Positions 3,409 through 54,926 of a stretch of DNA of 62,212 bases are shown here, piece by piece. The DNA is from Patescibacteria group bacterium. GTDB taxonomy: Bacteria > Patescibacteriota > Gracilibacteria > UM-FILTER-43-11. Where the stretch lies: the NCBI GenBank assembly GCA_029260955.1, contig JAJDCF010000007.1, positions 1 to 62,212 of the forward strand, written 5' to 3'. The notes below the pieces were generated by a model, which was not told the DNA's origin, did not search any database, and saw only the letters and a program-made list of their open reading frames with translations. The translations under genes and the position numbers were made by a program. Every line of letters starts with the position of its first letter. Position 1 is the first letter of the stretch.

Positions 3409-3444
3409 AATAATGGAGGGTTAGATGATTAAGTGATTAGATTA

Positions 3445-32044: not shown

Positions 32045-32170
32045 GGGGGAATTATAACCTAAATAATATGTGATTACGACATAAATAGGATTTAGTTAAA
32101 TATAATAAAGTATAATGAACATTGACAAGACTAGTTACCTTTAACTAGACTGTGCTCAAGTTAAAAAGAT

Positions 32171-32275
32171 TTAATTTAGTTAAAAAAGAGTTAATTAAAT
32201 TAAACAAAAGCTAACAAAAGTTAATTAAAATAAATTAATATAAAAAGAACTTAATTAAATTGAAATAAGTTAATT
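32171..32275. repeat. Five helically phased copies of an RTTAATTWAA motif in a very AT-rich spacer
   Basis: TTAATT begins at 32171, 32191, 32221, 32251 and 32270, giving spacings of 20, 30, 30 and 19 bp. Each copy is preceded by an AAG-type purine run. The array lies between the murD start (32044) and the HTH gene start (32308). Confidence 0.6.
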
Positions 32276-32307
32276 TAAATTAAGTCACTTTTAATACAAA
32301 AATAAAA

Positions 32308-32572: not shown

Positions 32573-34036
32573 TTATTTTTTAGGTTTATTTTGGCATTGT
32601 CTGGCAGAAAGCGCTGCAACTTCGCGGGTCAAAGTTGGAATGCTCTCGCCCGCATCTTCGTGAACATCTTCATAGCCTCGTTTGATTTGCGAGTTCATAT
32701 CCCATAGAAGGTCTCCCATAAAATAAACACCGTTCTCCGCTACACTATCCATCGTAATGCTGTAAATAAAGGCGGTCTCTACTTCTTTCTTAGCTTTGGC
32801 ATTTTCTTCTATAAGCTCTATTTGGTTGTGTAGAAAATGCGTTACAGAAAAGCTTTGATCTCTATTGCGGAAGCGATCACAGCGAACATCACCTTGTTCT
32901 GGCTCTTTACCTTCCTTACATCTTCTATACATGTCGCTTTCCACAGGGATTTTGCAATTTCTAAATTCACCTTCTTTTCCCTTTTCAGGATCAAAAAGTA
33001 TACACTCTTTTTCCACTTGGTCTTGAAACTTTTCCACATTTTCTAATTTATCACTATTGGCATAGTCAATAATAGCCGTGACCGGACCCACCATATTTTT
33101 GGCGATTTCTAGCTGTGTTTTTACACTGCCTACAAACTTGTCCCAGCCACCACCTTTAACCAGGCTTTCTGTGCTGCCACCTTCCTCGCCACCTATGGTA
33201 AGTGAGATCTGATTGTCTCGAATCCACTCTCTTGCTCTTATGCGGGCGTTGGCTTCGGCCATGGTCCATATGTCACCCCATTCCACTCCTTGGCCTGAAC
33301 CGAGCACTTTTAGAACTTCAAAGCTGCGAAGAACTTGATCGAAGGCTGCTTCGAATTCGCCTTCCGGACAACCTGTAGGGTCAGATGAGTCAAAAATACC
33401 TACGTTTGAATAATAATTAAGAGGATTCGGGCCTTGAGGCTTTTCGCCAAAAAAGTAATTGTTAGAACTATATTCACCTTCGGTGGTTTGAATCATTGCT
33501 GTCGGGTCTGAGCCATATTTGCGCAATAAATCCAGGTGAACACTCAGATAAATGTAGTCCACCATTAATATTTCTCCGTGGTAGGTATCGCGCAGCATAT
33601 AGGCTTTTACCATCTCTGATCCCACAAAGTCCCTAAGAGTTTCCAGGTTCCATATTTCGTCTCTCAGACAATTGCTTAGCCACTCTCCATTAGTCGCGTT
33701 GAAGTTGAAGATCATCATGATTGAATCGAGGGGGAATAGGGTGAAGAAATTGATAGTAGTATTGAAAATAAGATCTTGAGCGACTCTGGCATCGCCGGAT
33801 ATTCCGGTTTCCCTGCCTTCATCTCGCTTAGCTTTGTCGAAGGCTTTAAAGTTCTCAATCTCTTCCAAAATAGTTTTCGAACCATTCTGCGCCTGCGAAC
33901 TTTGTACGTGCTCCTTAATAATTGATACTGTCTGTGACAGCCTTGGTGAATAAAGTGCGTGCACGTTGCTTGCCTGGACGGTGAGTCCAATCAGAAGGGT
34001 CATGCCAATGATGAGGTGCTTTAATTTTTTGGGCAT
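32573..34036 (-). CDS. Secreted hypothetical protein (487 aa), last gene of the giant-protein operon
   Basis: Signal peptide MPKKLKHLIIGMTLLIGLTVQASNVHA. Start overlaps the upstream gene by 16 nt. No recognisable family. Confidence 0.6.
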   Translation of the reverse strand: MPKKLKHLIIGMTLLIGLTVQASNVHALYSPRLSQTVSIIKEHVQSSQAQNGSKTILEEIENFKAFDKAKRDEGRETGISGDARVAQDLIFNTTINFFTLFPLDSIMMIFNFNATNGEWLSNCLRDEIWNLETLRDFVGSEMVKAYMLRDTYHGEILMVDYIYLSVHLDLLRKYGSDPTAMIQTTEGEYSSNNYFFGEKPQGPNPLNYYSNVGIFDSSDPTGCPEGEFEAAFDQVLRSFEVLKVLGSGQGVEWGDIWTMAEANARIRAREWIRDNQISLTIGGEEGGSTESLVKGGGWDKFVGSVKTQLEIAKNMVGPVTAIIDYANSDKLENVEKFQDQVEKECILFDPEKGKEGEFRNCKIPVESDMYRRCKEGKEPEQGDVRCDRFRNRDQSFSVTHFLHNQIELIEENAKAKKEVETAFIYSITMDSVAENGVYFMGDLLWDMNSQIKRGYEDVHEDAGESIPTLTREVAALSARQCQNKPKK

Positions 34037-35976
34037 TGTTCTTTTGTGTCTAGGCTAGTTTCGAAAACCATTTGTTCAAATTTTGATTCTATTCTTTCAA
34101 AACTCCCTTTCATCTGTAAAAGCAGTGGATTTATTCTACCGCCGACTTCTTGATCGCTAATAACTTCATTGGTCAATTGAGATACGTAGGTGTCTCTCAG
34201 AGTTTTATCCAATGATGCCTCACTTTGTTTTGCTGTGTCGCTGAGTGACTGCCAGGTAGTCTTAGATTTTTCTTGGCTGGTTGTAACTGGTGCTGCCTTA
34301 TTTTCGGAAGCTGCCTTACTTTGATTGGCTTTACCTACACTGTTTTGGGCTGTTCCAGTGTACTTATATTTTAACTTACTTTTGGTAGCAGTATTCAGAT
34401 TAAATGAGAAGTTGACGCCATAAGGACTGCTGGTGCTGAAAGACGAAGTGGTATTTTTCAGAGGTGTTACGTTGGTTTCTAGGGCACCTTCAACTGCATC
34501 TACCATGGCTGTAATGTGACAGTCCACACAGCCTTCATCTTCAGTATAAGTTGATTGAGGACGGTTCTCTTTTTTTATGTTGACGCAAAATAGGGCTTGG
34601 ATAGCAGGTGCGATTTCCGCAACAGCTTCATCCTCTATCCAACCTTCACCAAACAAGAAGTCTTGAGCATCCTTGAAATCTGCACAAAATTCAGTTGGTA
34701 GGCATTGAGGAATATCATATTGTTCGCCAGCTATATTTATTCCTAATGTTTCCTCACCCTTAGCTGTGGCGGAAGCTCCCCCCTCGGTTGCACTGGCATT
34801 AAAAAACCCTGTTGGACATGGTGGTTTGTTGCTTGCTGGGAATTGCTTCATTGTACCCCCTAAAAATGGACCTGGATATTCGGGGCTTTGTGGAGCTTCT
34901 TGTGGTGGTCCGGCTTCTTCACCCTCAAAACCTGTTCCACTTTTTGGGAACATTCCCTCTGGACATTCGTTGGCACTGCCATCATCGTTTTCATCGTCAG
35001 TGCCTGCATTGTCTTTGGGTTTTTTAAAGGTGACTGCTTCTGGGTCCATACATTGGTCACTCGAGCCACTGGCTTCCGTTTGGCAGTATTGGTTACAACC
35101 GTCGCCTGACTGATCATTTCCGTCGTCACACTGTTCGGCCACCAAAATATCGATTACTCCATTTCCACAAAGCGTATTTTCATAACCACTGCCTGGTCCA
35201 TCTCCAAGATCAGCATCTGGGTCATCTGGTAAAACGCAGTCTGGCGGTAATCCTCCTTCACCTGACTTGGTCACTGCTATGCCTGGATCTTCAGTGTCTT
35301 CAAAGCCTTCATCTGTTGTTTCCTCATCTTCTTCATCGGGCAATAGTTCGTCGAGTGGGGTATCACCCTCTTCTCCATCAGCCGCTTCTTCTTTCTTGGC
35401 AGGAAAAGAATAAACTTCGTCCATCCATGTTGCTTGAGAGCCAAAAAGAACGATCTCAATCAAGTTTAGATCCACTATTAAATCAAAAGGGGCATCAGGC
35501 AATATGGTTTTAATCTCTCCATCCCAATATTGTTCAGAGACTTTGAACTTAAAGGCAAGACTGGCACTTTTTTGCTGAATCTTTTTTTCTTTGTTGTAAG
35601 CATTTCGAATGTTTTCAAATACATCCCAGTTTCGCAAGGTTTCTCCTACCGAGCTTCCAGCAGGCAAGCATGCATCTTGTATGGATTGTGGTAGCTTAGC
35701 TCTTTCACTATCACTGTACTCCACAATTGATTCACAAATGTTGTCGGCCAGAACTTCCTTAATCTGATCTCCGCTCATGCCAAATTGAGTAGCTAAAATT
35801 TCCACAATTTCTTTGTCAGCAGTTTCATTGTCAAATATCCGAATGTTACAATAGATGTTTTCGTAGTGAGTATCTGTATTATTCTGATTGCACACGTTTG
35901 CTTGGGCATCATGATTTGGCAGTATGATGGCTGCAATTATCAGAACTCCTGTGATGAAGCGTTTACAATTCTTCAT
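34021..35976 (-). CDS. Secreted acidic protein (651 aa) with one Myxococcus-type cysteine-rich repeat
   Basis: Signal peptide (…ILPNHDAQA). Asp/Glu-rich linker. CGNGVIDILVAEQCDDGNDQSGDGCNQYC (about nt 35085-35185) fits the CGNG..E.CDDGN...GDGC...C repeat. Confidence 0.65.
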   Translation of the reverse strand: MKNCKRFITGVLIIAAIILPNHDAQANVCNQNNTDTHYENIYCNIRIFDNETADKEIVEILATQFGMSGDQIKEVLADNICESIVEYSDSERAKLPQSIQDACLPAGSSVGETLRNWDVFENIRNAYNKEKKIQQKSASLAFKFKVSEQYWDGEIKTILPDAPFDLIVDLNLIEIVLFGSQATWMDEVYSFPAKKEEAADGEEGDTPLDELLPDEEDEETTDEGFEDTEDPGIAVTKSGEGGLPPDCVLPDDPDADLGDGPGSGYENTLCGNGVIDILVAEQCDDGNDQSGDGCNQYCQTEASGSSDQCMDPEAVTFKKPKDNAGTDDENDDGSANECPEGMFPKSGTGFEGEEAGPPQEAPQSPEYPGPFLGGTMKQFPASNKPPCPTGFFNASATEGGASATAKGEETLGINIAGEQYDIPQCLPTEFCADFKDAQDFLFGEGWIEDEAVAEIAPAIQALFCVNIKKENRPQSTYTEDEGCVDCHITAMVDAVEGALETNVTPLKNTTSSFSTSSPYGVNFSFNLNTATKSKLKYKYTGTAQNSVGKANQSKAASENKAAPVTTSQEKSKTTWQSLSDTAKQSEASLDKTLRDTYVSQLTNEVISDQEVGGRINPLLLQMKGSFERIESKFEQMVFETSLDTKEQCPKN

Positions 35977-35984
35977 TGTTGTTA

Positions 35985-36788
35985 TTAGCTGATGCTGGCA
36001 TCTTCCAGCTGAATCGGAAGTGGTTCAATGACATTTCTTAGGTTTTCCAAAGCTCTTCTGTATTGATCCAGAAATTTGAGGGTGCATTGAAAATGAACAT
36101 GCATCACAAAGGCCAGTCGTAGTTCTTTTAATGAGTGGAACATCAAATCGATGGCCATAAGTGAGCTATCGATTTCCATTTGTCGTTGTCTTTCTATGGT
36201 ACTTGCACTTTTAGCTGTCAGTAATTGTATGCCAGTGAGAGGTTCACCTTTTTCATTAGTTATGGTACTTGCTAAATAAAAATCTTTGCCTATTTCGTTT
36301 AGATTTTCTTTGTAGGCATTATGAGCATCCAAAATAGGTTTAAGCATTTGGCTGGGTTCAGTGTTTTGAATAATCTCTTTCAGTTCTTCATTTGTCAGAC
36401 ATGCCTGGTCAGACGCCATCCAGTCAATTGCACTTCCAAGAACTGGAACAGCACTTAGGCTAGTTAGATTCGCGGCCATGCTTCCTCCGCTGTCTGCACC
36501 ATCACTTTTCATTATCTCTTTTTCAGCAAAATCAAATATGCACCCCACATAATCATGATGGGCTTCTTGCATTTCTTCGAAGGCTATTTTGTAGTCACTC
36601 TGGTCTTTGGGGTCAGCCTTTCCCCAGGCTTCCAGTTCATACGCTTTGTCGAGTATTTTCTTTTTAGCTTTGCAGGCAATTTCTGGTTTAGTTAGGGCTG
36701 CTTCTTGGGCGTAGCTTATTGGTGCACCAGCATTTGATACTAAAGAGAGAATAATTGTTAGGCCAATGATTTTTTTGGTGTATTTCAT
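35985..36788 (-). CDS. Secreted hypothetical protein (about 267 aa)
   Basis: Start set at the ATG at 36788 (MKYTKKIIGLTIILSLVSNAGAPISYAQ signal peptide), 4 nt after the upstream stop. Four Cys. Helical composition. Confidence 0.6.
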   Translation of the reverse strand: MKYTKKIIGLTIILSLVSNAGAPISYAQEAALTKPEIACKAKKKILDKAYELEAWGKADPKDQSDYKIAFEEMQEAHHDYVGCIFDFAEKEIMKSDGADSGGSMAANLTSLSAVPVLGSAIDWMASDQACLTNEELKEIIQNTEPSQMLKPILDAHNAYKENLNEIGKDFYLASTITNEKGEPLTGIQLLTAKSASTIERQRQMEIDSSLMAIDLMFHSLKELRLAFVMHVHFQCTLKFLDQYRRALENLRNVIEPLPIQLEDASIS

Positions 36789-36792
36789 ATTT

Positions 36793-37659
36793 TTAATCAC
36801 ATTTAGCTGCATAACACGAGAATCGGCTATCTAGTTTGTTCAAAAAGCCTTGTAAATATCCGACATGTTCTTCCATAACACTCAGCTTGGTAACAATAGT
36901 TGCTAATTTCCTCTCCATGGCACTTGCCTTTTGGTCGGCGTGGGATTTTTTTAATACGTTTTCTAAAGTAACAAAGGCATTTGAAGTTTCCGGGCAAATT
37001 CCATCGTTGGCTTCGGCAACTTCTGCGGGGCAGCCAAACTGCTTTTCTAAGGCGATTTTACAGCCGCTATAATTTGATCTGGCCTGCACTACGTTTGGAA
37101 ATTCATTGTCGTTGGAACCCGTCATACATCGTGGGAAGTAATTGATCTTATTATCAACGAATGCTTTGTCGATTGTATCCGCAGCAACACCAACGACTGG
37201 AATTTCTTTAAAAGTTTGTATGAGTAGGTTGTATTCACTTTCCATTCTTAGATCTTCCGGAGCTTGGCAACCGGGTACAGTTCCCAAATGCTCACTGCGC
37301 AGGCCTGTTCCATAGGCGCTTTCGATGGGCGCATGACCGCTGAATTCAACTGCGCGACATATGTACTCCAGCCAACAGTTATAGGTTCTTAGACTTTCAT
37401 ATCCTTCACCTACCATTTCGCTGGCAGGTTTTTCCTGGTCAATAAGGTTCTGTAAACTGTTTTGCCAATCTTTATTGGCGGCGTCTAATGCTCCATTATA
37501 GTCAATGCAACATGCGTTGCTTGTCCCAACTTCATCTTTACATGCTTGTGCGTATTTTGAGGGCTCGGGTTCTTGTGAATGGGTGGCAATATCCCAGCTC
37601 AGAACGCCATATCCTATGCACAAAATAATGGCCGCTAATGTGATGTAAGATTTTTTCAT
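36793..37659 (-). CDS. Secreted cysteine-rich hypothetical protein (288 aa)
   Basis: N-terminal signal/anchor. Twelve Cys in the predicted mature part. Starts 2 nt after the stop of the giant ORF. Confidence 0.6.
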   Translation of the reverse strand: MKKSYITLAAIILCIGYGVLSWDIATHSQEPEPSKYAQACKDEVGTSNACCIDYNGALDAANKDWQNSLQNLIDQEKPASEMVGEGYESLRTYNCWLEYICRAVEFSGHAPIESAYGTGLRSEHLGTVPGCQAPEDLRMESEYNLLIQTFKEIPVVGVAADTIDKAFVDNKINYFPRCMTGSNDNEFPNVVQARSNYSGCKIALEKQFGCPAEVAEANDGICPETSNAFVTLENVLKKSHADQKASAMERKLATIVTKLSVMEEHVGYLQGFLNKLDSRFSCYAAKCD

Positions 37660-37661
37660 GT

Positions 37662-40600
37662 TTATTTGCTAAATATTACTTCTGTACTTTCACTTAACAA
37701 TATCTCGTGTGTTTCCAAGTCTGTAATGGCCGTCATAAAGCGATCTTCAGCCATAAATCCTGTCGTAAAGTCAACAAAGCCACATAACTCTCCTGGGCCC
37801 ACATAAACCCCAGGATCTTTTGCTGGGAAGTTATCGTTTAATTCAGGGCATCCATCTTCATCATCCACTCCATCAATGTCTTCCGGAATAGTTGGGCACA
37901 AGTCGGTGGCTTCACAAGCACTCGCAACTTGATCAGAGTTGGCTACAAAAATACAATTATCAATTTCAACAATTTCCACACCTTCAGCACCTTCTGCACT
38001 TTCAACTGCTAGTTTGGATGGATCAAGTAAGCCACTTTCATCAAAAATACAAATTGGATTGAGGATTCCATCACTATCTATGTCATCGTCACATACATCT
38101 CGAATACCATCCTCATCTGTGTCGTTCATGTTGGGGTTATCGCTACATTCACAGAGTTCAATTGGTTCAATTGGTAGAATCGGCTCTTCTTCACAAATAT
38201 TTCCGATGGTATTGGTATCGAAGTCTACCTGATCTTCATTCGGATCAAATATGCAATTATCTAATGGTGACCCTAAAGTAAGAACTCCTTCGGCCAGTTT
38301 TTTGGGGTCGATTTCACCTGTGTCGGTAAATATACAAAGTGGGTTCAGTACGCCGTCGTTATCGATGTCCAGGTCACAGACGTCCTTCTTCCCATCACCG
38401 TCCGTGTCCAATGTCCACGGGCTGTCGTAGCATGGACAAGCCCGATCAGCATCGGGTGTAAATATATCCATGTCATGGGTCATTTCCCACCAGTCGGGCA
38501 CTCCATCGTCATCGGTATCTACAATACGACATTCACTCAGATCTTTGACTCCGGCAGCCATAAATGCGAATTCGCCGCGAGTAATTTCTACATCTGGGCC
38601 AACCACACCAAAATTTGATTGAATCAGTCCAATTTCTACCGCTGTGTAAACATAGTCCACGTACCAGGCGTATTCAGGCACATCTACAAAGGCATTCTCA
38701 GGAGCTTCCACTATCTCGATGCCTGATTGTCTCAGCAGAACGGCTGCGGCCTCTGCGCGGCTAATGTTGCGTTCTGGGCGGAAGAATCCGTCACCATAAC
38801 CGGTGATCATGCCCAGTTCTTTGGCTATCGAAATACAGTAGAAGTACCACGATGGCAAGCTGACATCAGGGAACGGATTACTGGTGTATTTTTCTTTAAC
38901 GGCGGCATTTGGAGTGGTACAGTCCACACAATTTGTTACTCCAAGGGCAATCTTTATGAATTCGGCGCGAGTTAGTTTTTGATCTGGTTTAAAGCTGCCA
39001 TCACCGTATCCACTGATCACCCGGCTCTTGTACAATTCTAATATTTGGCTGAAGAAAGGATGGCTTTCATCAACATCGGGGAATGGATTTCCCTCAACTT
39101 CACGTGGTTCTTCTATTTCGAATTGGAACCCTGGAACAGGTGTAGTGTCTATTTCGGTAGATGTTTCTGGGGTAGATTGTGCAAAGGCTGTATCTACTGG
39201 CTTCAGGAATCCAATTTGCGTATTCAAGCTGTCCATGTCGGTGGAATTATCCACCTGGAGATTGTCAAAATTCGCCTGAATAAATATGTCATAAATAGGG
39301 CTGCCACCACTCGTTACGATTTGGAATATGTATTTTCCATCCCCCGACGTTTTGTTCTTAATTCTTAATTCGTAACCAGCTTTCATCATGCGAATCGTGC
39401 CATCTTTGTCTACCAAGGCTACATTTTCCTGAGCTCCGTCTTCAAAAATTGCCACACCGCCTGGGAAGCTAGGTCCATTTACTGGAATTACAGCGGCTAC
39501 AACGTCATCACTGGCATTTGCATCACCTACAGTTACTCCACTACTTTCCACATTGCTCAAGGTGAGTGATGAGTCTTTGATGGTGACATTGTTGGTTGTG
39601 TCGGCGATGTAATAAACGTTACCTAAAAGTTCTTCAGTCTCTCTCTTTATGATTGCAATATGTGTAGGGTATTCTGTGCCACCTGGTACAGCTTTAATAT
39701 CAAAGCTAGGGTCATTCAGATTAATCAGCCCGCTGTCTGGCTCCACTTCTGCCACTACATTCCCTTCATGGTCTTTCAGAAGAATTGGACTTGGGTCTAA
39801 AAGCTCAAAGCCTTCAATGTTATATGAACCGTCTGAGGCGACGGAAAAGTAATGCTGCTCAGTGTCCAGGGCAGGGCTGGTTGCGGTTTTGTCGGTGTCT
39901 TCTGCGCGCAAAATACCGATGTTCTTCCAGGTGCCAAGTCTCTTTCTGAATACACTGAATGGAATATCAGAAAGATCATCACCTGCTGCTCGCTGAATAG
40001 GCTCCATATCGCCCGCAATAATACCTTCGCCTAACTGTTCAGGGTCTAGATTAATGGTTGGTATATAAACTATTACCGTAAAGGTTTTTTCGAAGGTTTC
40101 AAAACTGTTGTCTTCAATATTTTGTGTGGCAACTAGCTTTACTTTGAACTTCTTTTCCTCGTTCTGTCCGGCTATGTTTAACGTATTACCGACCTCTGGA
40201 GTCAGAGTGTTGGTTTCGGGATTAAGGAACCAGTAGTAATTATAATCACCTGCCAGATCTACAAAAATCTCACTGGCTCTAATCTCCTTGTCCTTGAAGA
40301 TTGGCATGTAGTATGTGTCTGTTTGGCTCACGTCGATTGGATCGGCAGAACTTGCGTATATTTGCGGTGCCAGTATTTCATTTTGGTTGTAACTTGCTAT
40401 ATTCGCATACTGGTCAAACCATGTCATTTTTATTTGGTAGTAACCATTCTCCATACTCATGTTGTACGAAGATCCTGTTAGTTGGTCGAAATAAACAGCC
40501 TTATTTTCACTGACGTTAATCAGGGCGTTACTGACGGTGGGGAATCTTACTTCACTCACACCTGTCACAATGTTTCTTGGAGAAACGCCAAATTTCTTGG

Positions 40601-43600: not shown

Positions 43601-46600
43601 TTTCTATAGCATCAACGTATTGAAGGACTTTGCTGCCGCTCACGTCTTGCATTCCACTCTTAATATTCTGTATCACTGTTTTACTGCTTGAAGTATTCGA
43701 TTCGTCTTTACTCTGACTGATTTTATCAATGGCATTTAGCGTTTCCGACATTGAGCCTGACATCGTATTTTTCCAACTTTCAAATTCTTTTTCAGTCTTT
43801 TGAAAGTCTGATGTGAAGAGTGATTTTACGTCTGGTAGGAAGATGCTAAACGTGGGCAAGGTCAGTAGCTTGTTCTTGATTTCCATTGTTTGTCTGTCGA
43901 ACCAACCCGAAATCACGCCGCCAATAGAGTCAAATGTTGGAATATGAGTATTTGAGAAGGCTTTGGCAGGGGGGTCGAATTTCATGGATTCTCCCAAGTT
44001 CACTGCAAGACTGATTTCTAGCCCGCCTGCACCCTGGTCGGGGCCGCCCTGTTCAATGCTACCGGGTATGTTGGGATTGTTATTAATGTCGTTGACTGTG
44101 GAATTGACTTTGTTGATTCCGGAACTGATTAAATCCATCAGCGGAATAAAGACTTCATCTCGAAGGGTGGAACATGCACCGGCAAATAGGTCATCTACTG
44201 GTAAGGCGGTTACCATGCAATTTCCCACTGGAGGTGGATACGGAATAGGCCACACAGGTGGCGGTACAGCTGGAGCTTGTGGATACGGCCCCCAACACAT
44301 TGCTATGCCTATTCCTCCTGTTAAAGTGGGTGAAAGATACAGGCGAATTGCGGACATTATTGGCCCTGGAATGCTGGCAGCACCAATGGGTGTTATGGCA
44401 TGAAACACATCGAAAAATGGCATTGGTCCAATTGGAGTTGGCAGAGTAGTGGGAAAGGCAAAAATTGGCATTGCAAAATCAGGTGGCACTAGGAATGCCC
44501 TATTGAATGGCATGGGGAAACACCCACCACCCATACACGAGAAGTCAGCAATGGCTTCTCCAATGTCATCCAGTACTTCCTCTGCACAACCGACACTGGT
44601 GATATCATCACCGAAGTTGCTAACATCCTCAAAACAGTCGTTATTGCCCGTTATTTCATCAAGGACATCCCCATAGCTGGCACCAATCTTGGGTTCTGGT
44701 GGTGGGAAATCTTTACTAAAATTCCCGCCTGAATGAGCCTTCATTTGATTCATCAAATCTCCAAAATCATTCAGTGCATCGCTTGATTCAGGTGGCTCAG
44801 GGTCATTGCTTTCGGTGGTTGCGTAGCTCCTTGGTCCAGTCGTATAGTGCAGCAGTAGCTTCCCGGTGTTGTTGTAAGGTGGGGACGCCAGAATGTCCAA
44901 ATATTCATCAATGATTGAGTTTGGATTTGGTAGATTTTCATTTGGTTCATTGATTCTTTGAAGCAGTACATCAGCTTCTGGCGTGTGCGCAACAAAAACG
45001 TCGTAACTAATTATGGTTGTTTGGCCGGCACTTAAATTAAGTCCGCTAAAGAAGGCTTTAATAGAATTCTTTTTGGCTTCCATGCTTTGGCATCCTCCTT
45101 GTAAACAAGTAACGCTGTTTTTGTCGAAAGCCAAAGAGTCTGGCACTGTGTCGGCAATGATTACATTGTTTAGATTCGCTCCCGAGTTAATTGTAATGGT
45201 GTATGTTAGGGTTTCCTCCAAATCCACATTCTCGGAATCCGGGCGATCTTTGTTGCTCACTTTTTTGCTCACGCTCAGTGAGCCGACGGACTCAATTGGA
45301 GCAAAATATGTTTCGGTTTCATCACCTTCTGGCCATGGTAGCTTGGGTACTCCTCCACTGTTTTGCGCTGCAGCGACGGGATTTTCGGCTGCTGCCTTGG
45401 TGGCATCTGTTTGCCCTTGTATGAAGGGTAGTGTTAAGAAATCGGGAACATTTCCACCAATTTCATAGCCTTCCAAAGGTGGTTTGCCACCAGGTGGTAC
45501 GACTTCATTTCCGGGTTCCTGACCAGGTTCGCTAGGTTCAGACATGCCGGTATAGCGAATATCAAGGTCGGTGTTTAAGTTGGCATCCAGCTTTAGGCTG
45601 TATCCGTAGTTGGCTATCCATTTTCCATTTTCCGGGAATTTTCCTTTTGCTGGGTCGTAGTAAAAAATATAAATATCTCCGCGACTATCCAGAATCACTA
45701 AATCTCCGTAGCCATCCTGGTCCATGTCGCCCTTCAGAATCTTGTACATCTTTTTGCCGATGTTCAGCTTGTGATCACTTCGCGTGATCACTTCTTTATC
45801 ATTGTGCAAAATCGCCAATCTGCCTGCATCTGTAGCGACCAGCAGATCTTCGTAGTTGTCTTTATCAAAGTCAAAAGATTCCAGTGCTACGCCTCCATCT
45901 ACCAAGAATGCGATGTTTCCTTTGTCCTTATAGGGCGGCTCTGTGGCACCACCTTCCAGTAGTCTCACGCGCCCATCTTCGGTAAGTAGTGCGATATCTT
46001 GATTGCCATCGTTGTTAAAATTGAAATGATTGATCGAAGCAATTTGCTTACTCTCCGCGTCTTCGTAAATCTGTTGACCGGTGGCTCTGTTGTAATTTAG
46101 GCTCGATGTGCTTTTGGTTTTTAGTTTGATTGTTGGGTCGCCCAGCAAAATGGCATTGGCCGGCATATTGAACTTAACTGCATCACCTGCATTCGTTCCG
46201 CTGGCAAAGAGTGACAAGTATTTCTGTTTATCTTCAAGGCCGTAAAATTCATTCCGAATCACCTCTGGCACCTCTGCGTTTTGAGCGAAGAAGGTTAACC
46301 CAGTTGGGTCATTCGTGCTGGTGCCACCATAGGTTGTGTTCCACTTTAGGCCAGGATTTATATCACCAAAATCTCCTGGTTCAATTGTCTCAGGATTCAG
46401 ACTTATCAGTACTCTTGCCGGAGTCACTAGGCCATTTGTTAATTTCAGTTCAATAACGTTGTATTCAGGTTGAGATTCATATTCCCACGTGAAATTACTG
46501 TCGTTAATGTAGGCGCCATTTGGTTGCAGGTTGGCAATGACTTCATTGTAAAGATTCCTTATTTGCAGTCCATTATTGTTCTTCAGAGTCACATAGTCAG

Positions 46601-49600
46601 TATCCAAAATATCCACGTACATCTTGCCAATTTCAGGTGGGGTGTTCTCGTATTTTTCAACAGCATCAAAATTCAAGGCCACTTTTTTACTGATCAAAGT
46701 CTGCATGGTTTTTTGATCGAAGGCCTGTAGCAATAGTTCATTATTTGGGAATTCCACATAAACGATTTGGCTTTGTCCCGTGGTGGTGATCAGATGATTA
46801 GGAGCAATGCTCACTGTTGTTTCTGGGGTTGGTGCACTCAAGAATGAGTAAACTGCTTCAGTTTTTCCTCCAAAAAGATGAGTGCCACCAAAGTAGTTTT
46901 CTTGGGTAAAGTCACCTGCCGGGAATCCAACAAAAGACGCAAACAAGTTTTGTGGGTAGGTTTTTTCCCAGTCGGCTGAATCCACTCTGGCTAGCAGTGG
47001 TATATCCACTTGTGCCCCTCTCAGGTCATCATGAGTGGCAATTAGTTTTATGTCGGCGGTTTCTTTTCCACCCTTAATTATTGCAGTTCCAACTCCTTTG
47101 ATCATGACGACATATGGACTGACCAAGCTTGCAAACTCCGCAGATTTTTCATCGAGTTGAACGCTTATAGTTCCGTTGAAATCTTCTCCCGGAAAACCAA
47201 AATTGTCGGCTGCAAGCACTTCCATTTCTACTTCTTTTCCAATGGGAATGTATGGTGGGGCCCTCAAGATTATTTGAGTAGCGGCAGCGCCTGTTGGATG
47301 AATCACAAATGGTTCTCCGGTAATACCAGGAGTTTTGTCTTTGCTAATCAGTGTTATAGTTTTTTTGCCTGGTGTTGGAATGAATTTGATTGTACCTTTT
47401 CCGTTCAATAGCTTTACTTGTCCGCCATTTTCAAATCCACCATCGGCTGGCTGCTCTGGACCAATTGCAAGGGTATCGTTGATATTAGTTATGTGGCTGC
47501 CGTCTGGTTTTTTTAAGGTTACCGAAATTGTGAATTCTGATCGCCCTGCTTTAATCTCTTCTGTCGCTCCCCATCCGATATCAACGCTGTCGTAAACATT
47601 AATAGTGATTTCACGATGTTTCTTATTTTCCGGCAGGCCATCCATGGTGATTTTCAGTTTGCTGGAGCCGGTTTTTTTGGCGGTGAATTTAATTTCTCTT
47701 TCGCCAGTGTAGATATAAACATCTTTGCCTTTGTTTGAGAATGTCCCCAGGCTTGGATCATCTAACACAAGTTTTATAGGCATGTCGATGTATCCGAGTA
47801 CAGGTTCACCTTTTTCGTTCAGGGCCGAGATTTTGATTAATTCCTCTTGTCCCGGAACCAAGCTTTTTCGTTTCATCTGCACATCAAAGGTAGCAGCAGT
47901 AGAGAGTATTTGATCAAAGATATCTTCTGACTCTTCTTCCTCTTCGGGTGGAAGAGGAGCTGCACTACAGCTGTTATCAAGTTTAAAAAGTTCTTCTGCT
48001 GGCAAAATTTCTTCTTCAATCCAACACTGAAGGGCCTCGAACCATTCCCAAATTTCTACACCGGCTGGGTCTCCACAAAGATAGTTACCATCTCCCTCTC
48101 CATCTCCAGTTCCATCTCCGCCATCATCATCAGCGTCGGGACCACCCGTCCCTGTCCCATCGCCATCACTCTCATCGCTGGCGGAACTAGGTGCCTGAGC
48201 TTGCATGGCTCTGTTAAGTCCAAATTGGTACCCTTGCGCATCACCGTCGGCCACAATATGCAGCACTTCGTACCCCTCTGGTTTGTTTTGTGGTGATTTT
48301 CTTGGGTTGTAAAATGGGGTTGGCATGACACTGTCTCTGTCTACATATTTGGGAATGATGTCAGCCAGTTTTTGGTCGATGCTGGCAGCTCTCCAGATGA
48401 CGGGCTCGATGATTTCGGCATTATCAACAAAGAAATCCTCAAAAAGATTGCTTTGTGCAGTTGTTTTTGTGTTGAGTTCTTGCTGTTTTTTAGCTATTTG
48501 ACTGAGCAAGTTCTTAGTTATTTCCTCTTGATTGTCCCCATCTACTCTAAAAAGATTTAGGTATTCAAAGGCTTGCTTTAGCCCATTTTTAGCAAAAGAA
48601 ATATATCTAATTCCGTCAGCAGGAATGCTTGGGGTGGTGAGTTGCGGGAATTTAACTTGTCCAGTTAGGGGGTCCATCCGTGGTTCTCCAATATGTTTGA
48701 TGGCTTTGATGGTTTCGTTCGTTGGTTCAACGTGAGCGTAAAGTGTGTCGATGTTCTTTTTTTCAGTCGTTACGCTTATATCAATTTCCACCGATGGTAT
48801 AGGTGAATAGCTAAGTTCTTGTCCGCTAGCAATCAATCTTTGTACCACAAAAGATCCCTTCGTAATTGGGTCGGCATTGGGAAAATTTCCATGTAAATCC
48901 TCATACGCCTCATCGATTACTTCGGTGAGGGTGGTGTCTAGGCTTATTGGCACTACCAGTCCTGAGGCGGCTACAGAAAAGTACTGAAGTATGTTCGGCA
49001 ATCTAAAAGTCATTTTCTGAATGTCGCATCGGCCTGCTAAATCTACCGCGTCTTCCGCTTGTGCTTCTATGGAACCGAGAATGTCGTAAATAGATCCGGC
49101 TGCCAATGTTGGCTGACACTTGTTTGGACTGCTACCAGTTTCCTCTATCGTCATACTGTTGTTAAAAACACAGCCTGCATATTTTTTGTACGTTTCTGAC
49201 TCTGCTAATTCCCATTCATCATCGTCATCCGGTGGTGTCAAAAGAGTATCCGGATTGTACATGCGGTTGGCATTGACCATCACGGAATTATTTTCTAAAA
49301 CGGATTGTCCTTCCTGCCTTTGCTGCCCAACTTTTATGCCACATTGTGGAGAAACCAAGATATCACTGGCCTTTTGACCATCAAAATAGCCGTCAAAATC
49401 AAATGTATTACTGTCTATCTCAATTCCCAAAATACTCATTTCTACTTTTAGCTTGGCTTTGGTGAATATATTTTCTTGTCTTGCTCCAAAGCTGACATTA
49501 TTCTGGATGAACTCATCAGTTTCCTTTTCCAAAATCAATTGCTTACGTTTGATCTGATATTTGCCGTATTCGTCGCGCATGGTAATAAGAGATTCGGGAG

Positions 49601-50624
49601 AATCCACTTCGGCAGGGCTCCAGCGCCCAGTTCTTTCAATGCTTTCGTTAATGCCGCTTCTATAAATTTTGAGGGCTTCGGCAAAGTTGTAGGCGTATTT
49701 CTTGAATATATTCTCAGTATGAACATCAAACATGTTGTCGATGGTGCTATCATCCATAATTGGACTGTCGGGACTTCCCAAGTCTGTACTCACATCTTTC
49801 ACCATTTCTTTGAGCAGATGTTTGTTGAAACGATTCATGACTAACTCCTCCATGTATTTTATATAGCGACCGTAATTACTGTAATCGATGTAATTCATCT
49901 GTTTTTCCATTTCTGGAAAGTTGGCGTACAGCATTCGTTTCTCAAAATCAGCAAATATCGGATTGCCTGTACTGAATTCATAATTCTTATCAAAATAGGC
50001 TATTAATTCTTGTTTAGCGGTGCTTGGGTCCTTACTTGGTGGCACAATTAGGCCATGCCAAACTTCGGGTGTTGGTGCACTAACGTCTGCATTTGCTTCA
50101 AACTGACCTGTTTCATGATTGTAAATATATGCTTTCCGGTAAAAATCAGTGTAGGGGTAAATACTTGGAGCCGTCATTCCATCATCTTCGTGTACGACTG
50201 GAATTGGCACATCCCCGATTAGCACCACACCAAGTAATTGATTGTTATCCTCCTTTTTGGAGTTATTGTTGAGCGGGTTGCCGTCAATTTGATCAGTATC
50301 TATGCCTTCGAAATAGAGTTTTTCCAGCATGCTGGCAATTCGGAAGGTGGATTCGTTTTTGTCGACCTCCAAAACAAAAGACTTGGAATGAGGTGTCCTT
50401 TTTTGTGCGCTGTTCGCGTAAGTCATGATCCTTCCTCGCATGTCAAAATCATCCATCAATCCGTCTTCGACAAGAATGGCTATAAGGCCTAATTTGTTCA
50501 GATCTTCATTTTCGGCTGGATTTATGGTCTGTACAGGTATTTGCACATCCTCAATTTCGGCTTGTGCAAGTGCTTTTTGTACGACAAAATCCTGAAATGG
50601 CAAATAGTCTAGGTAATTTCCCAA
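37662..50624 (-). CDS. Giant mosaic surface protein (4,320 aa as tracked; the true start is probably further upstream)
   Basis: Uninterrupted 12,963-nt ORF. Modules read from the translation, with approximate nt ranges:
- Asp/Gly-rich linker, 48075-48190.
- Ig-like beta modules, 46985-47885.
- FG-GAP/VCBS-like repeats, 45650-46030.
- DUF11-like repeat (LEETLTYTITINSG..ADTVPDSL), 45000-45290.
- Two Pro-rich hydrophobic blocks, 44200-44540 and 42650-42930.
- Long helical region, 41400-43900.
- Three SLH domains, 38520-39089.
- Two TSP3-like Ca-binding modules, 37854-38519. Confidence 0.9.
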   Translation of the reverse strand: MGNYLDYLPFQDFVVQKALAQAEIEDVQIPVQTINPAENEDLNKLGLIAILVEDGLMDDFDMRGRIMTYANSAQKRTPHSKSFVLEVDKNESTFRIASMLEKLYFEGIDTDQIDGNPLNNNSKKEDNNQLLGVVLIGDVPIPVVHEDDGMTAPSIYPYTDFYRKAYIYNHETGQFEANADVSAPTPEVWHGLIVPPSKDPSTAKQELIAYFDKNYEFSTGNPIFADFEKRMLYANFPEMEKQMNYIDYSNYGRYIKYMEELVMNRFNKHLLKEMVKDVSTDLGSPDSPIMDDSTIDNMFDVHTENIFKKYAYNFAEALKIYRSGINESIERTGRWSPAEVDSPESLITMRDEYGKYQIKRKQLILEKETDEFIQNNVSFGARQENIFTKAKLKVEMSILGIEIDSNTFDFDGYFDGQKASDILVSPQCGIKVGQQRQEGQSVLENNSVMVNANRMYNPDTLLTPPDDDDEWELAESETYKKYAGCVFNNSMTIEETGSSPNKCQPTLAAGSIYDILGSIEAQAEDAVDLAGRCDIQKMTFRLPNILQYFSVAASGLVVPISLDTTLTEVIDEAYEDLHGNFPNADPITKGSFVVQRLIASGQELSYSPIPSVEIDISVTTEKKNIDTLYAHVEPTNETIKAIKHIGEPRMDPLTGQVKFPQLTTPSIPADGIRYISFAKNGLKQAFEYLNLFRVDGDNQEEITKNLLSQIAKKQQELNTKTTAQSNLFEDFFVDNAEIIEPVIWRAASIDQKLADIIPKYVDRDSVMPTPFYNPRKSPQNKPEGYEVLHIVADGDAQGYQFGLNRAMQAQAPSSASDESDGDGTGTGGPDADDDGGDGTGDGEGDGNYLCGDPAGVEIWEWFEALQCWIEEEILPAEELFKLDNSCSAAPLPPEEEEESEDIFDQILSTAATFDVQMKRKSLVPGQEELIKISALNEKGEPVLGYIDMPIKLVLDDPSLGTFSNKGKDVYIYTGEREIKFTAKKTGSSKLKITMDGLPENKKHREITINVYDSVDIGWGATEEIKAGRSEFTISVTLKKPDGSHITNINDTLAIGPEQPADGGFENGGQVKLLNGKGTIKFIPTPGKKTITLISKDKTPGITGEPFVIHPTGAAATQIILRAPPYIPIGKEVEMEVLAADNFGFPGEDFNGTISVQLDEKSAEFASLVSPYVVMIKGVGTAIIKGGKETADIKLIATHDDLRGAQVDIPLLARVDSADWEKTYPQNLFASFVGFPAGDFTQENYFGGTHLFGGKTEAVYSFLSAPTPETTVSIAPNHLITTTGQSQIVYVEFPNNELLLQAFDQKTMQTLISKKVALNFDAVEKYENTPPEIGKMYVDILDTDYVTLKNNNGLQIRNLYNEVIANLQPNGAYINDSNFTWEYESQPEYNVIELKLTNGLVTPARVLISLNPETIEPGDFGDINPGLKWNTTYGGTSTNDPTGLTFFAQNAEVPEVIRNEFYGLEDKQKYLSLFASGTNAGDAVKFNMPANAILLGDPTIKLKTKSTSSLNYNRATGQQIYEDAESKQIASINHFNFNNDGNQDIALLTEDGRVRLLEGGATEPPYKDKGNIAFLVDGGVALESFDFDKDNYEDLLVATDAGRLAILHNDKEVITRSDHKLNIGKKMYKILKGDMDQDGYGDLVILDSRGDIYIFYYDPAKGKFPENGKWIANYGYSLKLDANLNTDLDIRYTGMSEPSEPGQEPGNEVVPPGGKPPLEGYEIGGNVPDFLTLPFIQGQTDATKAAAENPVAAAQNSGGVPKLPWPEGDETETYFAPIESVGSLSVSKKVSNKDRPDSENVDLEETLTYTITINSGANLNNVIIADTVPDSLAFDKNSVTCLQGGCQSMEAKKNSIKAFFSGLNLSAGQTTIISYDVFVAHTPEADVLLQRINEPNENLPNPNSIIDEYLDILASPPYNNTGKLLLHYTTGPRSYATTESNDPEPPESSDALNDFGDLMNQMKAHSGGNFSKDFPPPEPKIGASYGDVLDEITGNNDCFEDVSNFGDDITSVGCAEEVLDDIGEAIADFSCMGGGCFPMPFNRAFLVPPDFAMPIFAFPTTLPTPIGPMPFFDVFHAITPIGAASIPGPIMSAIRLYLSPTLTGGIGIAMCWGPYPQAPAVPPPVWPIPYPPPVGNCMVTALPVDDLFAGACSTLRDEVFIPLMDLISSGINKVNSTVNDINNNPNIPGSIEQGGPDQGAGGLEISLAVNLGESMKFDPPAKAFSNTHIPTFDSIGGVISGWFDRQTMEIKNKLLTLPTFSIFLPDVKSLFTSDFQKTEKEFESWKNTMSGSMSETLNAIDKISQSKDESNTSSSKTVIQNIKSGMQDVSGSKVLQYVDAIETQASIYNLNALEGLYDVASTLPLVRLTEKPIQFDIPWLSAAEIQAWIMEAQNWVVYYEREYARVKDKWEALTCDDKPDVVDGGSLSENSAECVGRHLADAFGLNLDPLINSVKENIEVLQSYLAFPKQLVKFKQQLADYIRQVACHLDVVAQMMGGWMATIQQQMVSWAELILTIVAIIDNIEELFDLFTNFDANCDICTNERYANFGWWMLLGIVLPEIPIIQFPKIPDIVLDMSNMDALIDIELPVLNIRTKPIPLPPLPYITLPDLPSISILLTLPPLPILPRLPELPDLPPLPPIPTIDLPTLPVPPKLPDVAQAFEAIIPIIEKVLEIWCIMKKSFAPVPEQMLNDQITLLTNRPAYLIPLDLLKIQLPDIALFDIGFNELRIETIVYLGLRLNVASKPLEKLSEDWNGWIAEIPIAMNKAYSEYIEVIEKDFQALLDDVEEGMAKIADTISEGCIEYDWEADECVQTLQGAIDDSLGKKLEEADKWLRDKEGEWQAFADEIGSDLSYEEYYKAINSANETVNKWSGEAADKLKKWFAENADWIGWITPMAKIFEYIDEGTPADELQEILDLVAEKINESLVAGPTVLTRLSICLHAWPDCKNNKEAYFGDDKEASATINPELPKENKLIAQVPPIQSQPVTSPQISEEEYAKQILNTPQGHEIRSLLTKMTEAIDEVNENEMVDYKVLKEKFGVPDYKPLPRKTTVDKLRLMEQELIKHSDQLMAEAVGQKHITDLNAIAGKPPRSALPYELAEATLNPENNEIKVFTSALPPKALAKSDENPVSKAFMKLEERVERTVGQISGSEGEAPAGGLSGGCPAAVCLPDTITKKPVPVIPHIDLIGSSETLFMPNGHLAYSDGTGLYLKRDLTLVDDDKNTDTGNPKRYEFDEIASQLHISEQPMEAVNMLQTTFTENGASTFTWKPTAHSDIYGYGIELERTISGYDSNKQNNQLADTKIILLPADDEGETPAVTADDQPISFGTLVTSLTNKEEAAKKFGVSPRNIVTGVSEVRFPTVSNALINVSENKAVYFDQLTGSSYNMSMENGYYQIKMTWFDQYANIASYNQNEILAPQIYASSADPIDVSQTDTYYMPIFKDKEIRASEIFVDLAGDYNYYWFLNPETNTLTPEVGNTLNIAGQNEEKKFKVKLVATQNIEDNSFETFEKTFTVIVYIPTINLDPEQLGEGIIAGDMEPIQRAAGDDLSDIPFSVFRKRLGTWKNIGILRAEDTDKTATSPALDTEQHYFSVASDGSYNIEGFELLDPSPILLKDHEGNVVAEVEPDSGLINLNDPSFDIKAVPGGTEYPTHIAIIKRETEELLGNVYYIADTTNNVTIKDSSLTLSNVESSGVTVGDANASDDVVAAVIPVNGPSFPGGVAIFEDGAQENVALVDKDGTIRMMKAGYELRIKNKTSGDGKYIFQIVTSGGSPIYDIFIQANFDNLQVDNSTDMDSLNTQIGFLKPVDTAFAQSTPETSTEIDTTPVPGFQFEIEEPREVEGNPFPDVDESHPFFSQILELYKSRVISGYGDGSFKPDQKLTRAEFIKIALGVTNCVDCTTPNAAVKEKYTSNPFPDVSLPSWYFYCISIAKELGMITGYGDGFFRPERNISRAEAAAVLLRQSGIEIVEAPENAFVDVPEYAWYVDYVYTAVEIGLIQSNFGVVGPDVEITRGEFAFMAAGVKDLSECRIVDTDDDGVPDWWEMTHDMDIFTPDADRACPCYDSPWTLDTDGDGKKDVCDLDIDNDGVLNPLCIFTDTGEIDPKKLAEGVLTLGSPLDNCIFDPNEDQVDFDTNTIGNICEEEPILPIEPIELCECSDNPNMNDTDEDGIRDVCDDDIDSDGILNPICIFDESGLLDPSKLAVESAEGAEGVEIVEIDNCIFVANSDQVASACEATDLCPTIPEDIDGVDDEDGCPELNDNFPAKDPGVYVGPGELCGFVDFTTGFMAEDRFMTAITDLETHEILLSESTEVIFSK
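37854..38519 (-). other. Tandemly duplicated thrombospondin-type-3-like Ca-binding / Cys module at the C-terminus of the giant protein
   Basis: CPCYDSPWTLDTDGDGKKDVCDLDIDNDGVLNPLCIF...DPKKLA...DNCIFDPNEDQV, repeated as CECSDNPNMNDTDEDGIRDVCDDDIDSDGILNPICIF...DPSKLA...DNCIFVANSDQV. Confidence 0.7.
38520..39089 (-). other. Three SLH (S-layer homology) domains within the giant protein
   Basis: NPFPDVDESHPFFSQILELYKSRVISGYGDGSFKPDQKLTRAEF; NPFPDVSLPSWYFYCISIAKELGMITGYGDGFFRPERNISRAEA; FVDVPEYAWYVDYVYTAVEIGLIQ...EITRGEF. I verified the Asn codon of the first NPFPDV at 39087-39089. Confidence 0.8.
45650..46030 (-). other. FG-GAP/VCBS-like (integrin-alpha-type) repeats within the giant protein
   Basis: NFNNDGNQDIALLTEDGRVRLL; DFDKDNYEDLLVATDAGRLAIL; GDMDQDGYGDLVILDSRGDIYIF. 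This is the D-x-D/N-x-D-G-x-x-D Ca-binding loop followed by a beta strand. Confidence 0.65.
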
Positions 50625-50727
50625 AGTTACAAGTACCAGAAGTCCGGCGATTAGACGTTTTATTTTTGCTATTTTTTGTTTTACTTAAGACATTTTTTGC
50701 CATTTTACAGTGTATCAAAATTGGCCT

Positions 50728-53090: not shown

Positions 53091-53101
53091 TACTGTAGCT
53101 C

Positions 53102-53503
53102 ATGGCTAAAACTTCAAAAAATGTTAAGGTGCTGATCGTTGAAGATAACGCGAATATCTGTGAAATGTATGCGGTTACTTTTATGCGTCGAGGTTTTACA
53201 GTTTACACAGCTCCCGATGGTCGGAGCGCTATACAAAAGTACCAGAACAAGAAGCCTGATATCATTTTGCTGGACATCATGATGCCTCATGTTGATGGCT
53301 ATAAGGTGTTAAGCGAAGTGCGAAAGGACGTGAATGAGTACACTCCGGTGATTATGCTTACGAATCTGGATGCTAATGATTTTGCCAGGGAATCGCAGCT
53401 CGAAAATATAGATGCATACCTTATAAAATCACATCACAGTCCCCGAGAGGTGGTTGATAAGACTATTGAGGTGCTTAGAATCAACAATATTGCAGTCGAA
53501 TAG
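53102..53503 (+). CDS. Single-domain response regulator (REC only, CheY-like)
   Basis: VLIVEDN acidic pocket, phospho-acceptor Asp in IILLDIMMP, and AYLIKS conserved Lys. At 133 aa it has no output domain. Confidence 0.9.
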   Translation: MAKTSKNVKVLIVEDNANICEMYAVTFMRRGFTVYTAPDGRSAIQKYQNKKPDIILLDIMMPHVDGYKVLSEVRKDVNEYTPVIMLTNLDANDFARESQLENIDAYLIKSHHSPREVVDKTIEVLRINNIAVE

Positions 53504-53568
53504 CTTGAAAAAAGCTCTGTTTTATGCTAAAATAATAGGAAATAATTTTATTTTAGTAATAATTAATT

Positions 53569-54054: not shown

Positions 54055-54081
54055 TAGCTTAAGCGATATGAATATTATATT

Positions 54082-54924: not shown

Positions 54925-54926
54925 GT

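Follow-up and report, generated by a model that had tools for sequence, protein, structure and literature searches.

Organization of the operon

The DNA considered here, called the window below, is a stretch of 62,212 nucleotides (nt) from a Patescibacteria group bacterium (contig JAJDCF010000007.1, positions 1 to 62,212, assembly GCA_029260955.1). The list of its open reading frames (ORFs) holds five consecutive ORFs on the minus strand, a giant gene followed by four smaller genes referred to as A, B, C, and D, and the operon formed by these five genes is the subject of this work (Table 1). Amino acid (aa) positions of the giant are counted throughout from the TTG that opens the 4320-aa ORF, the product of which is identical to P0060 of the NCBI-derived collection (P stands for proteins and L for loci). 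The genes are closely packed: the giant gene and A are separated by 2 nt (TAA-ac-ATG), A and Met9 of B by 4 nt (TAA-aaat-ATG), B and C by 8 nt (TAA-taacaaca-ATG), and C and D overlap by 16 nt. No Shine-Dalgarno sequence could be recognized at any of these four junctions, which together with the short gaps and the overlap fits coupled translation of the five genes.

A preliminary description of the locus had reported five co-directional minus-strand ORFs with gaps of at most 8 nt or overlaps, and the ORF coordinates given there were confirmed exactly. Its upper limit of the operon, 50693, could not be kept because the ATG at 50691–50693 is followed by TCT TAA and is unusable as a start of the giant. 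As boundaries it had named a bidirectional terminator and a tRNA-Val gene. The tRNA gene is there and so is the hairpin, and it is plausible that the latter serves as a terminator shared by the D and HTH_17 genes; it was, however, not called by a terminator scan, and its fold is not significantly more favorable than those of shuffled sequences (z = -1.2). The HTH_17 gene itself had been overlooked.

Table 1. Coordinates of the operon, of the modules of the giant protein and of the adjoining features in the window.
Feature	Start	End	Strand	Description
HTH_17 protein (excisionase/MerR-like)	32308	32487	+	59 aa; convergent to D; 52.7 bits
Hairpin	32530	32561		10-bp stem, 12-nt loop, centroid -11 kcal/mol; between convergent D and HTH_17 genes
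Subunit D	32573	34036	-	487 aa; predicted secreted; all-alpha model; orphan family
Subunit C	34021	35976	-	651 aa; predicted secreted; very acidic
Subunit B	35985	36812	-	275 aa if begun at Met1, 267 aa if begun at Met9 (36788); predicted secreted; orphan family
Subunit A	36793	37659	-	288 aa; predicted secreted; acidic; orphan family
Giant gene	37662	50624	-	TTG first canonical start; 4320 aa, ~476 kDa, isoelectric point (pI) 4.3
C-terminal domain of giant	37665	37844	-	60 aa; conserved; after the TSP3 repeats
TSP type-3 calcium-binding repeats	37845	38534	-	aa ~4031–4260; acidic, Cys-rich; 29% Asp+Glu, 15 Cys
Three SLH domains	38535	39086	-	aa ~3847–4030; non-covalent cell-wall anchor by homology
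Central domain	42315	44567	-	aa 2020–2770; hydrophobic, Pro-rich (13–27% Pro); invariant Cys pairs
DUF11/TIGR01451-type repeat	44976	45275	-	aa ~1784–1883
FG-GAP/integrin-alpha-like beta-propeller	45525	46247	-	aa ~1460–1700; conserved DxDxDG calcium loops
N-terminal domain	49545	50489	-	aa 46–360; no known family; invariant GVVLIGDVPIPVV, SxYPYTDFYRK, PExWHG
5' extension of giant gene	50625	50672	-	probable n- and h-regions of signal peptide, I/M-AKIKRLIAGLLVLVT-
tRNA-Val(gac)	50795	50871	+	adjoins 5' end of giant gene
PAS histidine kinase and receiver-only response regulator	51117	53503	+	divergent from giant gene

Conservation of the five-gene unit

Look-ups in GTDB genomes and metagenomes yielded 14 distinct related loci of sufficient extent, and all of them show the order giant-A-B-C-D, which answers the doubt, raised with the preliminary description, whether the five genes are syntenic in related genomes at all. 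The same order was found in two distant, Gracilibacteria-labeled loci (L024 and L025) with giants of 5316 and 5047 aa, where the giant is followed by genes of 217, 234, 588, and 371 aa and of 197, 212, 639, and 365 aa, respectively, and where the terminal Cys motifs of the partners (see below) are kept. Synteny holds even where identity within the D family falls to 24–34%. Judged by gene order, the five genes can be regarded as established as one dedicated unit, with the operon intact across Peregrinibacteria and related Gracilibacteria.

Export of the giant and its start codon

The reading frame of the giant is conserved upstream of the first ATG, GTG, or TTG, where it encodes a signal peptide with the consensus K-I/F-K/Q-R-x-I-A/S-G-L-L...LGN...ALA↓QAE. 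In the window, in L027 and in L028 (~2900–3000 in each of the latter two) this signal peptide is encoded directly after an in-frame TAA (50685–50687 in the window), and the sole aligned candidate start is an ATA located five codons before the conserved Arg, at 50670–50672 in the window. In four other orthologs (P0065, P0071, P0092, and P0094) the same signal peptide follows an upstream ATG. Translation of the giant thus probably starts at a weak, non-canonical ATA codon, and the alignment suggests that non-canonical initiation is conserved among three independent orthologs. As the giant seems to start with ATA, gene callers truncate the signal peptide and let the protein begin at 'MLGN...'. 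The conserved in-frame signal peptide upstream of the annotated start implies that the giant is exported.

Domain layout of the giant

Approximately three quarters of the length of the giant has no match in Pfam, NCBIfam, PHROG, or the PDB sequence set. Among the matches that were obtained is one to the SLH family (PF00395), with three stretches scoring 95 bits against a cut-off of 20.8 (E = 2.5e-27) and a match to the SLH region of Sap at 1.8e-7, and the SLH region is among the most conserved blocks of the protein. In characterized cases SLH triads bind pyruvylated secondary cell-wall polymer. No csaB gene was found within the 62-kb window. Anchoring of the giant to the wall via its SLH triad is well supported by these matches. 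The TSP type-3 repeats that follow the triad reach 32.4 bits when scanned as a separate tile (TSP_3, cut-off 25), and their family profile matches COMP (3.3e-20) and thrombospondin-2 (2.7e-18). The propeller tile scores 39.1 bits with FG-GAP_3 (cut-off 26.9), 25.3 bits with FG-GAP (cut-off 22.1), and 31 bits with Beta-prop_BBS7, the FG-GAP score being below cut-off when the whole giant is scanned instead of the tile; a BBS7 profile match at 1e-4, invariant Asp and Asn residues and calcium-loop motifs at aa 1535 and 1633 point in the same direction. In the DUF11 region NCBIfam TIGR01451 scores 28.6 bits (cut-off 24), Pfam DUF11 17.5–20 bits, which is under its cut-off of 24.6, and the isopeptide domain RrgB_K2N_iso_D2 23.8 bits, also under its cut-off (30). 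Of the modules that the preliminary description had listed, SLH, FG-GAP, and TSP3 are thus borne out, the DUF11-type repeat is supported by TIGR01451 and not by Pfam DUF11, and the Ig-like modules are weak in the window protein (Glyco_hydro2_C5, E = 0.05); homologs are annotated with Invasin_D3 and Big_1.

The N-terminal domain is retained even in giants of 5000–6000 aa (E ~1e-35). It gave no Pfam match as a tile and no PDB match even at E ≤ 10, and a search with this domain alone returned only eight short matches of 214–626 aa, which we read as N-terminal fragments of giants. A C25/gingipain-like identity (PF01364/PorU) was rejected on the same Pfam and PDB searches; it had been suggested by VLIGDxPIP, YxD, and WHG motifs, and the His/Cys dyad is lacking too, as there is no Cys in aa 46–427. 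Two further origins were discarded. Sortase-dependent surface proteins or pili are ruled out by the absence of LPx[TSA]G from all five proteins, and a phage origin by the PHROG matches, which come only through the SLH region apart from a 17-bit noise match to a tape-measure protein.

A central domain that marks the family

No block of the giant family is better conserved than the central domain, which contains a period-3 LPxLPxLP tract. An exhaustive HMMER search with aa 2020–2770 returned 414 clusters at E ≤ 1e-3, and the top 150 of these consist entirely of giants of ~3500–6000 aa and of shorter proteins that we assume to be giant fragments; where the match is full-length, the domain lies roughly two-thirds along the protein. 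Among these top 150 of 414 clusters it was not seen in any other architecture, and by this search the domain is a signature of the family. Its hydropathy is positive (grand average of hydropathy +0.06 to +0.52), without classical transmembrane helices. The AlphaFold model, built from 18 sequences, is poor, with a predicted local distance difference test (pLDDT) of 55.7; in its best-modeled stretch, aa ~2360–2540, long helical hairpins with flanking beta-hairpins are indicated at low confidence. Foldseek with this poor model gave no match.

It is conceivable that the central domain and the helical subunits A–D enter the host cell envelope or connect to it and form a feeding or junction device, i.e., a conduit for an epibiotic parasite. 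The chief support for such a role is the signature domain, which is hydrophobic and at once the best conserved, and the hints of hairpins in the model would suit it as well. An operon with four secreted helical proteins is also reminiscent of pore formers with several components such as Hbl/Nhe/Ahl/Smh and YaxAB, in which several secreted helical proteins are likewise encoded side by side. The family is moreover confined to a clade that includes known epibiotic predators (PMC8080830). Against this, Foldseek revealed no structural similarity to a pore-forming toxin, a secretion-system part or a fusogen, the model of the central domain is of low confidence, and no ATPase or other energizing component is linked to the operon. 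In contrast to the helical toxins named above, A–D are not detectably paralogous, and a pore-forming toxin fold was rejected for D, the model of which found no Foldseek match better than E = 1. We regard a membrane-engaging conduit as improbable.

The partner subunits

Each of A–D carries at its N-terminus a basic and hydrophobic segment and an AxA-like site, as in a Sec-type signal peptide, which agrees with the signal-like N-termini noted for all four products in the preliminary description. All five operon products are acidic (pI 4.2–5.2) and invariant cysteines are present in every subunit, which fits extracytoplasmic disulfides. The partners have no family match in Pfam, NCBIfam, PHROG, or PDB except for one DUF4215/TIGR02232 Cys-rich repeat in C (35071–35175), so that the family scans agree with the earlier impression that apart from one Cys-rich repeat no motif can be assigned. 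Each has a C-terminal helix and, after it, a Cys among the last ~10 residues. The terminus of A reads C-x4-C-[D/T], that of B ..C(T/Q)G in L024 and L025 and ..TCGG in L023, C has a Cys within its last 5 residues (..QC..), and D, a family of 59 homologous clusters all of ~485 aa, ends in QCxNK. Subunit B further carries a conserved FVMHVHFQC motif. No PDB relative was found for A, nor for D by fold or sequence; the AlphaFold model of D is all-alpha with a pLDDT of 70.7 (~90 for aa 30–200). The shared helix-plus-Cys pattern is a motif, not a demonstrated homology: hhalign probabilities are ≤35% between the four families and ≤2% between them and segments of the giant, and both kinds of paralogy were rejected.

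In subunit C a CxxCH motif (CVDCH, 34516–34530 on the minus strand, aa 483–487) is located at the start of a predicted helix. It is present in 17 of 18 C homologs, both Cys being invariant and the His replaced by Asn in L008. No cytochrome family match was obtained for C in the Pfam and NCBIfam scans. The motif may serve to attach a c-type haem or may form a redox-active disulfide.

Components of described machineries were sought among the partners, since a match to pilus, T5SS, or T9SS families would have placed the operon in a known class, and none was found: there was no family match and no PDB relative for components of type V, IX, IV, or VII secretion systems (T5SS, T9SS, T4SS, and T7SS) or of chaperone-usher systems. 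The gene arithmetic nevertheless resembles that of PilY1 and the minor pilins, i.e., one large propeller protein and, after it, four small ones that are hydrophobic at the N-terminus, and the operon could on this ground encode a tip or priming complex associated with type IV pili, with a PilY1-like giant and A–D in the place of the four minor pilins. In L025 the giant comes directly after pilB-, pilC-, and pilin-like genes, and in L024 a pilin-like gene lies 4 kb upstream of it. However, the AxA-like sites of A–D are of the Sec type, and a minor pilin identity was rejected as there is no G↓F/M-T-L-x-E leader and no N_methyl or T2SSG match. Neither sequence nor structural similarity to the PilY1 system was found, no pilus genes are found near it in the window, L004, L006, L027, or L028, and SLH anchoring of the giant is ill-suited to a position at a pilus tip. 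A pilus-associated complex is thus very improbable.

Evolution and genomic setting of the giant

About 38 full-length orthologs of the giant were found, with lengths of 4118–4464 aa and identities of 36–73%. They derive from independent assemblies (NCBI, JGI, ENA, and Logan) and are collinear with the 13-kb ORF, which rules out the assembly chimera that had been considered in the preliminary description. The alignment of 36 orthologs is collinear with few gaps and an identity of 0.3–0.75 per 60-aa interval, and the stretches of low identity look like linkers. The label 'mosaic' that the giant had been given is refuted by this full-length collinearity, by the narrow size range and by the lack of internal repeats (none by BLAST at E ≤ 10). 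The giant of the window is 55 and 50% identical to those of the syntenic loci L006 and L004, respectively, the corresponding values being 55 and 52% for MurJ and 63 and 64% for MurD. The giant thus evolves about as slowly as MurJ, and from the matching identity levels it follows that strong purifying selection acts on all of its length.

All homologs with a source name come from Patescibacteria, Candidatus Peregrinibacteria/Peribacteria, or Candidatus Gracilibacteria. Some 50 further giants measure 5000–6400 aa, and those of them with a source name are from Gracilibacteria-labeled genomes. They are collinear with the window giant at aa 55–290, 640–880, 1040–2270, 2340–2770, and 3360–3790 and in the SLH region. 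Five of them (P0099, P0102, P0116, P0130, and P0136, two of which are encoded in L024 and L025) contain the SLH module twice, the additional copy being in the N-terminal third, and in the first four of these the adjacent beta-rich region (from aa ~3580–3616 in the window giant) is duplicated together with it; a second triad implies two predicted points of wall attachment. The reverse is seen in P0148 (L029, 4377 aa) and P0149 (L026, 3817 aa), which keep the N-terminal and central domains and have neither SLH domains nor the four partner genes at their loci. P0148 is from a lineage using genetic code 25, and NCBI annotates its gene as many small fragments, as fits a gene in which UGA is recoded.

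The window is ordinary core chromosome, containing glycolysis genes and genes for FtsQ, a DacA-like DD-carboxypeptidase, an M23 peptidase, Mur ligases, DivIC, trigger factor, RelA, iPGM, MurJ, MurD, and RNase Y. In Peregrinibacteria murD and murJ are syntenic on one side of the operon, and the side with the PAS histidine kinase, the response regulator, and tRNA-Val is syntenic as well; in L024 and L025 the murD/murJ adjacency is absent and type IV pilus or toxin-antitoxin genes flank the operon instead.

This setting and the mode of evolution raise the question whether the operon could encode a housekeeping scaffold of the envelope, such as an S-layer-like or wall-organizing lattice, a spacer, or a structure for division or shape that is needed regardless of any partner cell. 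The MurJ-like rate, the collinearity throughout and the narrow length range are what such a scaffold would show, there is no hypervariable tip domain, the variable stretches being linker-like, and both the neighborhood of cell-wall and division genes with murD and murJ next to the operon in Peregrinibacteria and the two SLH modules of Gracilibacteria-labeled versions agree with it. On the other hand, known S-layer proteins are far smaller and have no set of four obligate partners, the murD/murJ adjacency is missing in the two loci named above, and the very high expression that is typical of S-layer proteins would sit poorly with a probably weak ATA start. P0148 and P0149, which retain the core of the giant without SLH domains or partners, also speak against it. 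We consider a scaffold the most serious of the alternatives, possible though doubtful.

The HTH_17 gene and other neighbors

In 18 loci, the distant L024 and L025 among them, the HTH_17 gene is the next one after D, and its product, at 53–95% identity, exceeds the operon proteins in conservation by far. It may be seen as a conserved sixth gene of the neighborhood and as a candidate regulator of the operon. The region between murD and HTH_17 (32110–32300) is AT-rich and holds a degenerate repeat of ~20–30 nt at 32158–32275. A box, TTAATTTAAATTAAGTC, is found just upstream of the HTH_17 gene, and close variants with the consensus TTTAATTAAATTAAGTC are present in most Peregrinibacteria loci; a second box, AACATTGACA, near 32117–32127 also recurs across loci. 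They are probably promoter or operator elements. As a motif enriched over the whole window GTTAATTAAA was rejected (6 matches against 8.9 expected), and four of the six matches are grouped in the 90 bp upstream of the HTH_17 gene. The contigs of L008, L010, L011, and L015 break a few hundred bases past D, within or just beyond the HTH_17 gene; the first three end inside the very AT-rich intergenic region with the repeat, possibly a weak point of assembly.

At the other end, the PAS kinase and response regulator may regulate the operon. Kinase and regulator flank the giant in L027 too, and the kinase does so in L028. In the window the signaling cluster (51117–56114, plus strand) continues with an uncharacterized 161-aa protein, a fusion of an RsbW-like kinase to STAS, and a SpoIIE/PP2C phosphatase. 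The tRNA-Val(gac) gene adjoins the 5' end of the giant in three genomes, the window, L027 (2768–2844), and L028 (1270–1346), and is divergent from the giant in the first and co-directional with it in the other two. Elsewhere in the window a second SLH protein of 1404 aa (16862–21076, plus strand) has three SLH domains near its N-terminus and otherwise no family; its gene is followed by a 424-aa ORF, also without family. A tyrosine recombinase gene (Phage_integrase, 336–1178, plus strand) is located at the left edge of the window beside glycolysis genes.

A proposed function in cell-cell contact

Starting from the gene organization, the conservation, the export signals and the modules described above, we infer that the five proteins assemble physically and that the assembly functions in contact. 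The operon would then encode a five-subunit extracellular complex, anchored by SLH domains and stabilized by calcium and disulfides, for contact with another cell; we give this reading a probability of about 0.5. In the proposed course of events the ~480-kDa giant would leave the cell via its Sec signal peptide and would be held non-covalently on the wall polymer by the C-terminal SLH triad, while calcium bound by the TSP3 repeats and FG-GAP loops, together with disulfides, would stiffen it. The acidic and largely helical subunits A–D, made by coupled translation, would form a stoichiometric complex with the giant, docking onto it possibly via their C-terminal helices and terminal cysteines. 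The assembled structure would most likely contact the surface of another cell, host or sibling, and candidate contact elements are the integrin-like propeller, the Ig-like and DUF11 modules, and the hydrophobic, Pro-rich central domain. The preliminary description had proposed a wall-anchored machine for attachment or host contact with four dedicated partners. The dedicated unit and the SLH anchoring have held up; attachment or host contact is suggested only by the adhesion-type modules and by the lifestyle of related bacteria.

Several observations weigh against a role in contact. The giant is conserved uniformly and as highly as MurJ, and its N-terminal domain, which should be distal, belongs to the parts that are conserved best; a host-specific adhesin is not expected to show such uniform, slow, and collinear evolution. 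The second SLH module in Gracilibacteria-labeled giants suggests a wall-hugging rather than a projecting structure, and the locus sits among cell-wall and division genes. Contact is furthermore read from a minority of the sequence, because ~75% of the giant and all of A–D are without a recognizable fold or motif.

A bolder proposal goes beyond a contact complex. It is tempting to speculate that the operon encodes an unrecognized envelope machine that defines the Peregrinibacteria-Gracilibacteria clade, composed of the SLH-anchored giant of ~480 kDa as its core, with the unique 750-aa hydrophobic, Pro-rich domain, of four subunits of orphan fold and of a dedicated small HTH regulator, and that this machine physically engages the envelope of a host as a junction or feeding conduit belonging to no known class of secretion system, pilus, or adhesin. 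We offer this tentatively and think it rather unlikely to hold in full.

Relation to known systems and significance

The SLH, TSP3, and FG-GAP modules are, on the profile matches, bona fide members of known families, and taken together the system corresponds to no pilus, secretion, adhesin, or S-layer operon described so far. With the S-layer proteins Sap and EA1 of Bacillus anthracis and SpaA of Paenibacillus alvei the giant shares the SLH triad. It differs from them in that the triad is near the C-terminus of a protein of 4,300 aa with no similarity to them outside SLH, and in having four obligate partner genes and probably a weak start codon. Giant calcium-dependent adhesins, i.e., the RTX adhesins LapA and MpIBP and integrin-like FG-GAP/VCBS and TSP3 proteins, have in common with it the size class, acidic calcium repeats, Ig-like modules, and a propeller. 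Unlike these, the giant has no long tandem-repeat stalk, no type I secretion signal and no linked transporter, it evolves slowly and collinearly instead of by repeat expansion, and most of it matches no known fold.

To our knowledge, proposals for contact in the Peregrinibacteria-Gracilibacteria-Absconditabacteria branch have been limited to pili and unspecified 'giant surface proteins'. The closest precedents are found in the genome papers on Peribacter, Vampirococcus, and Strigamonas, in which very large surface proteins with SLH, integrin (FG-GAP), or DUF11 annotations were proposed, without tests, to serve host attachment (PMC4736985, PMC8080830, PMC13059738). These proteins come from the same or sister lineages and are Cys-rich with signal peptides and FG-GAP/DUF11/SLH annotations, as is the case here, but they are listed generically, and the papers do not treat this ortholog family, its collinearity, its central domain, its partners, or the HTH_17 gene. 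Our literature search likewise returned generic mentions of large extracellular proteins in these lineages and no description of this operon, so that the gene order, first put forward as undescribed, was not found in the papers searched. An SLH-anchored giant surface protein is known as such, and what is new here is the set of four orphan obligate partners and the family-specific core domain.

How bacteria that belong to the candidate phyla radiation (CPR/Patescibacteria) attach to other cells and draw resources from them is an open question, and the locus offers a concrete target across many genomes, in which one giant goes together with four fixed partners and an HTH gene linked to them. The annotation can also be corrected, as gene callers drop the signal peptide of the giant and NCBI splits the gene where UGA is recoded (in at least one lineage). 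If the operon were to encode a housekeeping scaffold instead of a contact complex, it would still be an undescribed major component of the envelope of these bacteria.

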